In this document: in pieces, positions 408 to 1,031 of the stretch | Numbering within the stretch: position 1 is the stretch's first letter | How the letters are laid out: the number at the start of each line of letters is the position of its first letter | DNA from: Escherichia coli | GTDB taxonomy: Bacteria; Pseudomonadota; Gammaproteobacteria; Enterobacterales; Enterobacteriaceae | DNA: 1,031 nt | Strand: one strand, 5' to 3' | Assembly: GCF_003334335.1 (NCBI RefSeq) | Contig: NZ_QOWQ01000129.1 | Translations under genes and position numbers: made by a program | The notes under the pieces: model-generated | What the model was told of the DNA's origin: nothing | Database searches by the model: none | Seen by the model: only the letters and a program-made list of their open reading frames with translations

Positions 408-1031
408 CTAAATACGCACTTTAAGATAAGTCAGCCCCGGATGAAGCCAGTAAGCCGGCACTTTTTTAAAGGGTGGAGTATTAAAATCACGAAGAAGAGC
501 CTCCCGCACAATTGCATCCTTATCAGCACCACTGGCCAGCGCTTCAATCTCAGCGGCTACCTGAAGATATCCCATGCAACGGCCAACGCGCTTCATCAGC
601 CCCTGCTTTTTATTGTTCTTCAGGTAATCAATGGCAAATTCAATGAGCTCCTCACTGTGCTGGTGCGATGGAGGTGTTACTTTCCCATTTTCTGAGATGG
701 TTATTTTCCCGGCATCACCGGATACAACAAAGGATGGCCGGTTACACTCCCATTCCAGCTCACTGAAATTATCATTATGAATACTGAAACACTCTGCGAG
801 ATTTCTGCTCATCACTTTCCGACAATAATCGTCAAACGCAGCAAACTGCTCATCGCGGCGTTTTTCTTCAGGCCGCTGAAGATGCTCTTTCAACAGTGAA
901 GCGCAGCTTAGATGCGCCGCGCGATCAAGAATAGTTTCTTTCATTTCATCTGCTGCAAGCACCTCATTTTTTGTTGGGGTGCTTTTTTTCAATTCAGCGA
1001 TATAGCACTCCAGTTTTTCAATGCGTGATTC
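408..1031 (-). CDS. Hypothetical protein of unknown function, soluble, immediately upstream of the endolysin; 5' end probably beyond the window
   Basis: Minus-strand reading frame open for 208 codons from the window edge (1031) to a TAG stop (complement of 408..410). The ORF track starts it at a TTG (complement of 990..992), but the 13 codons upstream (ESRIEKLECYIAE) contain no stop, and the only GGAG upstream of that TTG is ~15 nt away, too far for a good Shine-Dalgarno. The true start is therefore probably outside the window. A stop-free run this long in ~45% GC DNA is unlikely by chance, and it is co-oriented with the endolysin. No hydrophobic stretch long enough for a transmembrane helix, so it is not a holin. 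Five Cys in the 194 residues from the TTG, none in CxxC pairs. I do not recognise the family. Confidence 0.65.
   Translation of the reverse strand, partial: ESRIEKLECYIAELKKSTPTKNEVLAADEMKETILDRAAHLSCASLLKEHLQRPEEKRRDEQFAAFDDYCRKVMSRNLAECFSIHNDNFSELEWECNRPSFVVSGDAGKITISENGKVTPPSHQHSEELIEFAIDYLKNNKKQGLMKRVGRCMGYLQVAAEIEALASGADKDAIVREALLRDFNTPPFKKVPAYWLHPGLTYLKVRI

Follow-up and report, generated by a model that had tools for sequence, protein, structure and literature searches.

An Escherichia coli prophage open reading frame called from an internal TTG is probably the 3′ part of a YdfR-family late gene

The minus strand of a 1,031-nucleotide (nt) stretch of Escherichia coli DNA (contig NZ_QOWQ01000129.1 of assembly GCF_003334335.1; hereafter the window, meaning the whole stretch analyzed) carries an open reading frame (ORF) that runs off the edge at position 1031 and had been listed as 194 amino acids (aa) from a TTG at 992..990. 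Comparison with related loci makes it very probable that the gene is about 329 codons long and that this TTG is internal to it. Its family is already known and annotated in databases—as YdfR family protein and as PHROG 1085—and the result is ordinary in that respect. The window would hold the 3′ two-thirds of a late gene of about 990 nt from a lambdoid, Shiga toxin (Stx)-phage-like E. coli prophage, placed in the lysis cassette with a class II (pin)holin gene on one side and an endolysin gene on the other. The real start would most likely be an ATG about 366 nt past position 1031, served by a GGGGAGAG Shine–Dalgarno (SD) sequence, and the gene would be translated from the late, Q-antiterminated transcript.

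Within the window, minus-strand translation of 408–1031 gives 207 sense codons followed by TAG at 410..408, with the TTG as the 14th codon. The first-pass annotation had pointed to the 13 in-frame, stop-free codons upstream of the TTG (1031..993) and to the lack of a well-spaced SD before it, and both statements agree with our reading of the sequence. The 13 open codons are true as an observation and carry almost no weight alone: At the window's composition such a run has P = 0.50, and of all 13-codon windows in the remaining five frames 57% are open as well. Because this is no better than chance, comparison with relatives must decide. The 207-codon frame as a whole is nonrandom (P about 1.5e-5). 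The only purine-rich element 5′ of the TTG is a GGAG at about 1011..1008, 15 nt away, whose pairing with the anti-SD reaches −5.9 kcal/mol at that spacing, compared with −8.1 to −8.5 kcal/mol at 7–9 nt for the ATG of relatives. The call of 408..992, TTG, 194 aa is an artefact of the window edge, since the ORF lister picks the first ATG, GTG, or TTG past that edge.

Related DNA supplies the upstream context. The Stx2a-converting phage Stx2_95 is 95.4% identical across the whole window, endolysin included, and has a single annotated 329-aa coding sequence (CDS; BCI50300.1) that shares the window's stop codon, starts 366 nt past the window edge, and begins 4 nt after the holin stop. Using the conserved 15-mer ATTGAAAAACTGGAG (window codons 4–8), we placed the frame in 12 loci, 10 of which extend far enough upstream for the comparison. 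All 10—95–99% identical overall, or about 98–100% identical over the window's last 168–209 nt—are open for 145 codons upstream of ATTGAAAAACTGGAG, which begins at the window's fourth codon. Each of the 10 has its first start codon, an ATG, 125 codons above the 15-mer and 4 nt past the stop of the class II holin, with GGGGAGAG lying 7–9 nt upstream inside the last holin codons. Codons 1–136 contain zero indels and zero stops in these relatives, and GCTGAATTG, codons 134–136, is kept in every one. From this open frame and the position of the ATG it follows that the window edge should fall after codon 122 and that the TTG should encode Leu136 of a protein of about 329 aa. The expected continuation past 1031 is 122 more open codons, up to an ATG that follows the holin stop by 4 nt (…CGGGGAGAGTAAAGCGATG).

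Protein relatives and domain profiles place the fragment in the same register. Database proteins that reach the window's first residue align there at their own residue 109–123, never at residue 1, and no protein starting at the TTG codon occurs among the database homologues. The 329-aa YdfR family protein of cluster P0001 is 94% identical to the window's 207 residues, which align to its residues 123–329, and the peptide ESRIEKLECYIAE is identical in P0001–P0003, with the pattern xxRIxxLExxIAEL kept in stand-alone forms of the C-terminal part. PHROG 1085 matches the window fragment over profile positions 124–296 of 296 (E = 1.1e-105) and a full-length relative over positions 1–296 (E = 3.3e-179); positions 1–123, uncovered by the fragment, correspond to the part past the window edge. 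Pfam finds DUF1327 (PF07041) at residues 1–112 of the full-length relative (E = 1.3e-44) and nothing in the window's 207 aa, even at E ≤ 10. Precomputed annotations place PF07041 in all full-length homologues, and in the window's own protein the domain would lie past the edge. The first-pass annotation had proposed that the TTG is internal, that the protein is longer than 194 aa, and that domain analysis of the short version would miss its N-terminal part. Four lines of evidence bear this out (DNA relatives, the upstream frame, protein relatives, and domains): The check it suggested, comparison with homologues, returned no start at the TTG, and the truncated version yields no domain whereas the full-length protein falls in a named family.

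Table 1. Features of the window, with coordinates on its own numbering
Feature	Coordinates	Strand	Basis
C-terminal 207 codons and stop TAG (410..408) of a prophage late gene (~329 codons, YdfR-family / PHROG 1085), putative full extent; runs off the window at 1031	408..1031	−	Translation, homology
TTG called as start in the ORF track; predicted to be Leu codon 136, internal to the full-length gene	990..992	−	Conservation in relatives
Thirteen in-frame stop-free codons (ESRIEKLECYIAE), part of a predicted coiled-coil linker, residues 123–135	993..1031	−	Translation, alignment
Variable, mostly helical middle region, residues ~137–211; mosaic recombination zone	765..989	−	Alignment, low pLDDT, similarity switch
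Conserved C-terminal domain, last ~118 aa	411..764	−	No Pfam family
Spacer of 36 nt, ORF stop to endolysin ATG	372..407	−	Identical in 4/4 aligned loci
Endolysin (phage lysozyme), N-terminal 123 codons, ATG 371..369; runs off the window at position 1	1..371	−	Translation, annotation of relatives

The genomic slot is that of a lambdoid lysis cassette. The endolysin lies downstream inside the window (371..1), and a holin lies upstream, outside the window, in every relative. At least 80% of the window is carried by 605 of 5,426 complete E. coli genomes. The closest described counterpart, annotated as a 329-aa "YdfR family protein" or "Phage protein" (EFI7721612.1, cluster P0001; UniProt A0A376D7Q5; BCI50300.1; PHROG 1085), is the same gene with the same stop, slot, and architecture. 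The window differs from that allele as a recombinant: Its 5′ 170 nt resemble the truncated 176-aa alleles, and its 3′ 870 nt resemble the 185-aa stand-alone allele of Escherichia sp. MOD1-EC7003. The only family member with experimental data is YdfR of E. coli K-12 (b1555, P76160), encoded in the Qin cryptic prophage. It shares the slot—essQ holin, ydfR, rrrQ lysozyme, with a 4-nt gap after essQ—and is 45% identical to residues 1–74 of the N-domain of the fused-type proteins, in which DUF1327 and the C-terminal domain form one polypeptide. However, K-12 YdfR has only 103 aa and is without the coiled-coil, middle, and C-terminal domains, that is, without everything found in the window.

The alleles at this position are mosaic. 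No exact copy of the window occurs in the 5,426 complete E. coli genomes (megablast; best match 99.2%, frameshifted) or in phage records (best 95.4%), and exact-pattern scans of IMG/VR and JGI metagenomes, with a peptide-pattern scan of GTDB species representatives, returned only partial mosaics (L004–L012, L020). Positions 1–870 are 99.1% identical to Escherichia sp. MOD1-EC7003 (L020, the 185-aa stand-alone form), with divergence at 871–1031. Positions 864–1031, in turn, are 98.2% identical to eight IMG/VR prophage contigs with a 176-aa truncated fused-type gene, and 823–1031 match, at 98.6% identity, a metagenome contig that encodes a 211-aa form. The similarity thus switches between relatives at about 864–870, and the window allele is, on these sequence comparisons, a recombinant. 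Because the high identity to fused-type loci reaches the window edge, the most probable continuation past 1031 is the DUF1327 N-terminus. Module exchange seems to be concentrated in the holin–endolysin slot.

Several observations weigh against an intact, selected gene of about 329 codons. The upstream 366 nt are taken from relatives. The locus recombines often, the window is itself a recombinant, and a junction just past 1031 is possible. Many alleles are truncated or frameshifted, and the closest complete-genome match is among them. In these 99.2% alleles (the AR_0017 group: AR_0017, CE10, and no fewer than 10 more, for a total of at least 12 complete genomes), a 1-bp deletion breaks the gene into ORFs of 162 and 161 aa, and most differences from the window lie in the opening ~190 nt of the gene part. 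The deletion site corresponds to window position ~866 (minus strand, GCGGCGCAT; ~4115 in L002), where the window allele is intact. Over codons 1–136 the variable columns by codon position number 18/15/25, a weak third-position bias, and the differences summed over all pairs are 521 nonsynonymous and 235 synonymous. Stand-alone C-terminal modules, finally, start only 10–11 codons upstream of the position equivalent to the TTG (L020; P0131/L022). Frequent frameshifts and truncations, together with the weak third-position bias, point to relaxed selection on a gene that prophages can do without, and selection for the full-length form is not strong.

One alternative is a decaying prophage remnant, in which a frameshift, a nonsense mutation, or a deletion disrupts the upstream part in the source genome and the full-length product is missing, however long the ancestral gene was. 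Such disruption is frequent: Besides the AR_0017 group, L004–L011 (176 aa) and L012 (211 aa) are affected, and many database entries are fragments. We nevertheless regard this as very unlikely for the source genome, as the window's 207 codons are intact, unlike those of the closest complete-genome allele, codons 1–136 are intact in 10/10 relatives, and the clusters of intact 329- and 330-aa proteins are large (648 and 149 members).

Still less probable is a source gene consisting of a stand-alone C-module, with its own ATG and SD a few codons past the edge and directly after the holin, which would encode about 210–215 aa and no DUF1327. The 213-aa stand-alone form is widespread (P0067, in 244 blocks of the collection), the 185-aa protein of MOD1-EC7003, so similar to the window over 1–870, starts 3 nt after the holin stop, and a distant form, P0131, starts MPLEQRVKILEKDIRELKKST, with an AGGAGG SD and its ATG lying 11 codons before the position equivalent to the TTG. 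Three features speak for the fused type instead. The window departs from L020 at exactly 871–1031, where it matches fused-type loci at 98–100% up to the edge; the preceding codons of those loci (…SENDDI/V) hold no start, L001–L012 reading …LRSE(N/K)DD(I/V) there; and the E. coli stand-alone forms are without the STPTKNEVLAADEMKETILDRAAHLSCAS segment that the window carries. Even with a stand-alone gene, the TTG is internal.

Least likely of all is that the TTG at 992..990 is a genuine start, whether the sole one or a second, internal one giving a 194-aa isoform beside the full-length protein: The C-module can be an independent protein starting ~10 codons upstream of the TTG, and the NCBI Prokaryotic Genome Annotation Pipeline (PGAP) annotates the 161-aa downstream half of the frameshifted alleles from an internal TTG, but no homologue starts at this codon, the only SD candidate pairs weakly at 15 nt, the 13 codons upstream are conserved as protein, and E. 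coli seldom uses TTG as a start codon. Directly 3′ of the TTG on the mRNA lies an inverted repeat, AAGCACC…GGTGCTT, at 957–984. The surrounding 66-nt mRNA region folds at −14.8 kcal/mol (z = −2.27; 5/200 shuffles equal), with the TTG just 5′ of a stable hairpin that is part of a larger stem. On the plus strand the same positions receive a terminator-like hairpin score and are followed by TTTTT. The hairpin probably reflects chance or coding constraint; if real, it would count against initiation at the TTG. Scans for regulatory and RNA elements of the window matched no promoter-like sites and no Rfam families.

With the gene read as a fused-type allele of about 329 codons, we derived the anatomy of the protein from an alignment of 31 relatives and from AlphaFold2 (AF2) models. 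An N-terminal β3-α domain (residues 1–73; predicted local distance difference test, pLDDT, about 80–95) lies within DUF1327. It is followed by a low-confidence segment and then by a helical linker that opens with a heptad-like motif (ESRIEKLECYIAELKK), includes an AF2 helix at residues 120–139, and is probably a coiled coil. The middle region holds a segment, STPTKNEVLAADEMKETILDRAAHLSCASLLKEHLQRP, that is missing from the 296-aa, 287-aa, and 185/213-aa forms. The C-terminal domain (about residues 220–329, ~115 aa; pLDDT 85–96) consists of three short strands and then four helices, and its invariant residues in full-length numbering are L259, G272, R273, L278, Q279, A281, P309, K311, W317, P320, and Y324. 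For the whole reconstructed protein, the maximum 19-residue Kyte–Doolittle hydropathy is 1.05 (0.75 for the window part) and the grand average of hydropathy is −0.52. The protein is soluble, without a transmembrane segment, and modular.

Modularity is visible in the range of forms: fused (329/330, 296, and 287 aa), truncated (176 and 211 aa), and stand-alone C-modules (185 and 213 aa). The stand-alone modules (185 aa in P0004 and L020; 213 aa in P0067 and P0072) are 65–97% identical over their C-terminal ~115–150 residues and share the slot, beginning directly after the holin; they differ in having their own ATG (MNHEEMNQRFSRLENEIAELNKK…) and in that DUF1327 is not part of the same polypeptide. 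In L015–L017 (3001–3897), a 213-aa C-module is followed by a separate 75-aa DUF1327 ORF, in an order reversed relative to the fusion. The occurrence of the two as a fusion and as neighbors, a Rosetta-stone-like association, suggests that the C-module and DUF1327 work together; L020 has the C-module alone, and the link is not obligatory. The C-domain is narrowly distributed, its profile recovering only 27 representatives among 1.84 billion proteins. Distant relatives (P0125, P0127, P0129, P0130, and P0136; 25–34% identity) keep the order N-domain, coiled coil, C-domain and are placed in the lambdoid late region near Q, holin, and lysozyme. Two genes of distant relatives are preceded by a DUF4406 gene, and one contig has a HicA/HicB toxin–antitoxin pair between the Q antiterminator and the gene, further accessory cargo of the late region (L013 2780–3434; L013 3639–4004 and L019 1089–1487).

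Searches for function returned little beyond the family itself. NCBIfam gave noise only (E ≥ 0.1), a profile search of Protein Data Bank (PDB) sequences gave nothing meaningful (E ≥ 0.11), and Foldseek against the PDB gave zero matches with E < 0.29. PADLOC-DB, which covers antiphage defense, had no model matching the full-length relative, the window fragment, or the 213-aa stand-alone form at E ≤ 1. The structure search of AFDB50 returned family members only, from Escherichia, Shigella, Salmonella, and a few other Enterobacterales, the top match, 93% identical, being an E. coli "Phage protein" of 329 aa. A resemblance of the small β3-α N-domain to double-stranded RNA-binding domains or RNase III appeared in a few low-probability Foldseek hits, which we judged not significant. 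Lysis-protein families in PHROG, Pfam, and NCBIfam gave zero matches, and we discarded an antiholin or spanin role for want of a hydrophobic segment in the protein. Our literature search found "DUF1327" in one genomics paper only and nothing relevant on what Stx phages encode between holin and endolysin.

The functional information that exists comes from K-12 YdfR, whose residues 1–72 bind RNase E's N-terminal catalytic domain in bacterial two-hybrid (BACTH) and copurification experiments, and which pulls down RNA when Strep-tagged (PMC13232886). By analogy, the window's gene may encode a dispensable, "moron-like" accessory late protein whose YdfR domain would dock on host RNase E at its catalytic half, and possibly on RNA, with the C-terminal domain as a tethered partner or effector module. 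We hold this proposal as tentative and rather doubtful. A further step, which we consider unlikely, is that the C-domain is an effector module coupled to the RNase E-docking YdfR domain, by fusion or as a neighboring gene, in Stx-type lambdoid phages, and that shortly before lysis the two together would reprogram host RNA decay or protect late transcripts (mRNAs for Stx, lysis, and morphogenesis). On the other side of the balance, YdfR overexpression had little effect on the transcriptome (PMC13232886), the proposal draws on one paper and on a paralogue that is 45% identical, and nothing in the sequence, profile, or structure searches ties the C-terminal domain to any activity.

For annotation, the 194-aa TTG call is better replaced by a partial CDS with its 5′ end beyond the window, encoding a YdfR-family (DUF1327) prophage protein of probably ~329 aa. 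The gene appears to be a common, dispensable-looking mosaic passenger of the Stx-type prophage lysis cassette, and the sole wider point is an undescribed, narrowly distributed C-terminal module that is recurrently linked to the RNase E-binding YdfR domain. The locus is handled badly by automated pipelines: An intact 329-codon allele is sometimes reduced to a 112-codon "incomplete YdfR" pseudogene, its other 217 codons bearing no annotation. In L003 (NZ_CP148579.1), for example, 2635–3624 is an uninterrupted 329-codon ORF (compare L002, NZ_CP024886.1, 3635–4623) whose annotation stops after codon 112, under the pseudogene label "YdfR family protein, incomplete, missing C-terminus," leaving ~217 codons without a feature. 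RefSeq/PGAP is inconsistent here, with the same protein appearing elsewhere as a plain 329-aa "YdfR family protein."

Downstream of this gene, the endolysin is annotated in relatives as "lysozyme" or "phage endolysin" of 177 aa, and Pfam Phage_lysozyme is matched in related contigs. No obvious SD precedes its ATG in the 36-nt spacer. The endolysin N-terminus is weakly hydrophobic and rich in Ala and Gly (YGLSAAVLALIAAGAPAP), with a hydropathy peak of 1.74 at residues 9–27; such an N-terminus is typical of signal-anchor-release endolysins, the partners of class II pinholins.
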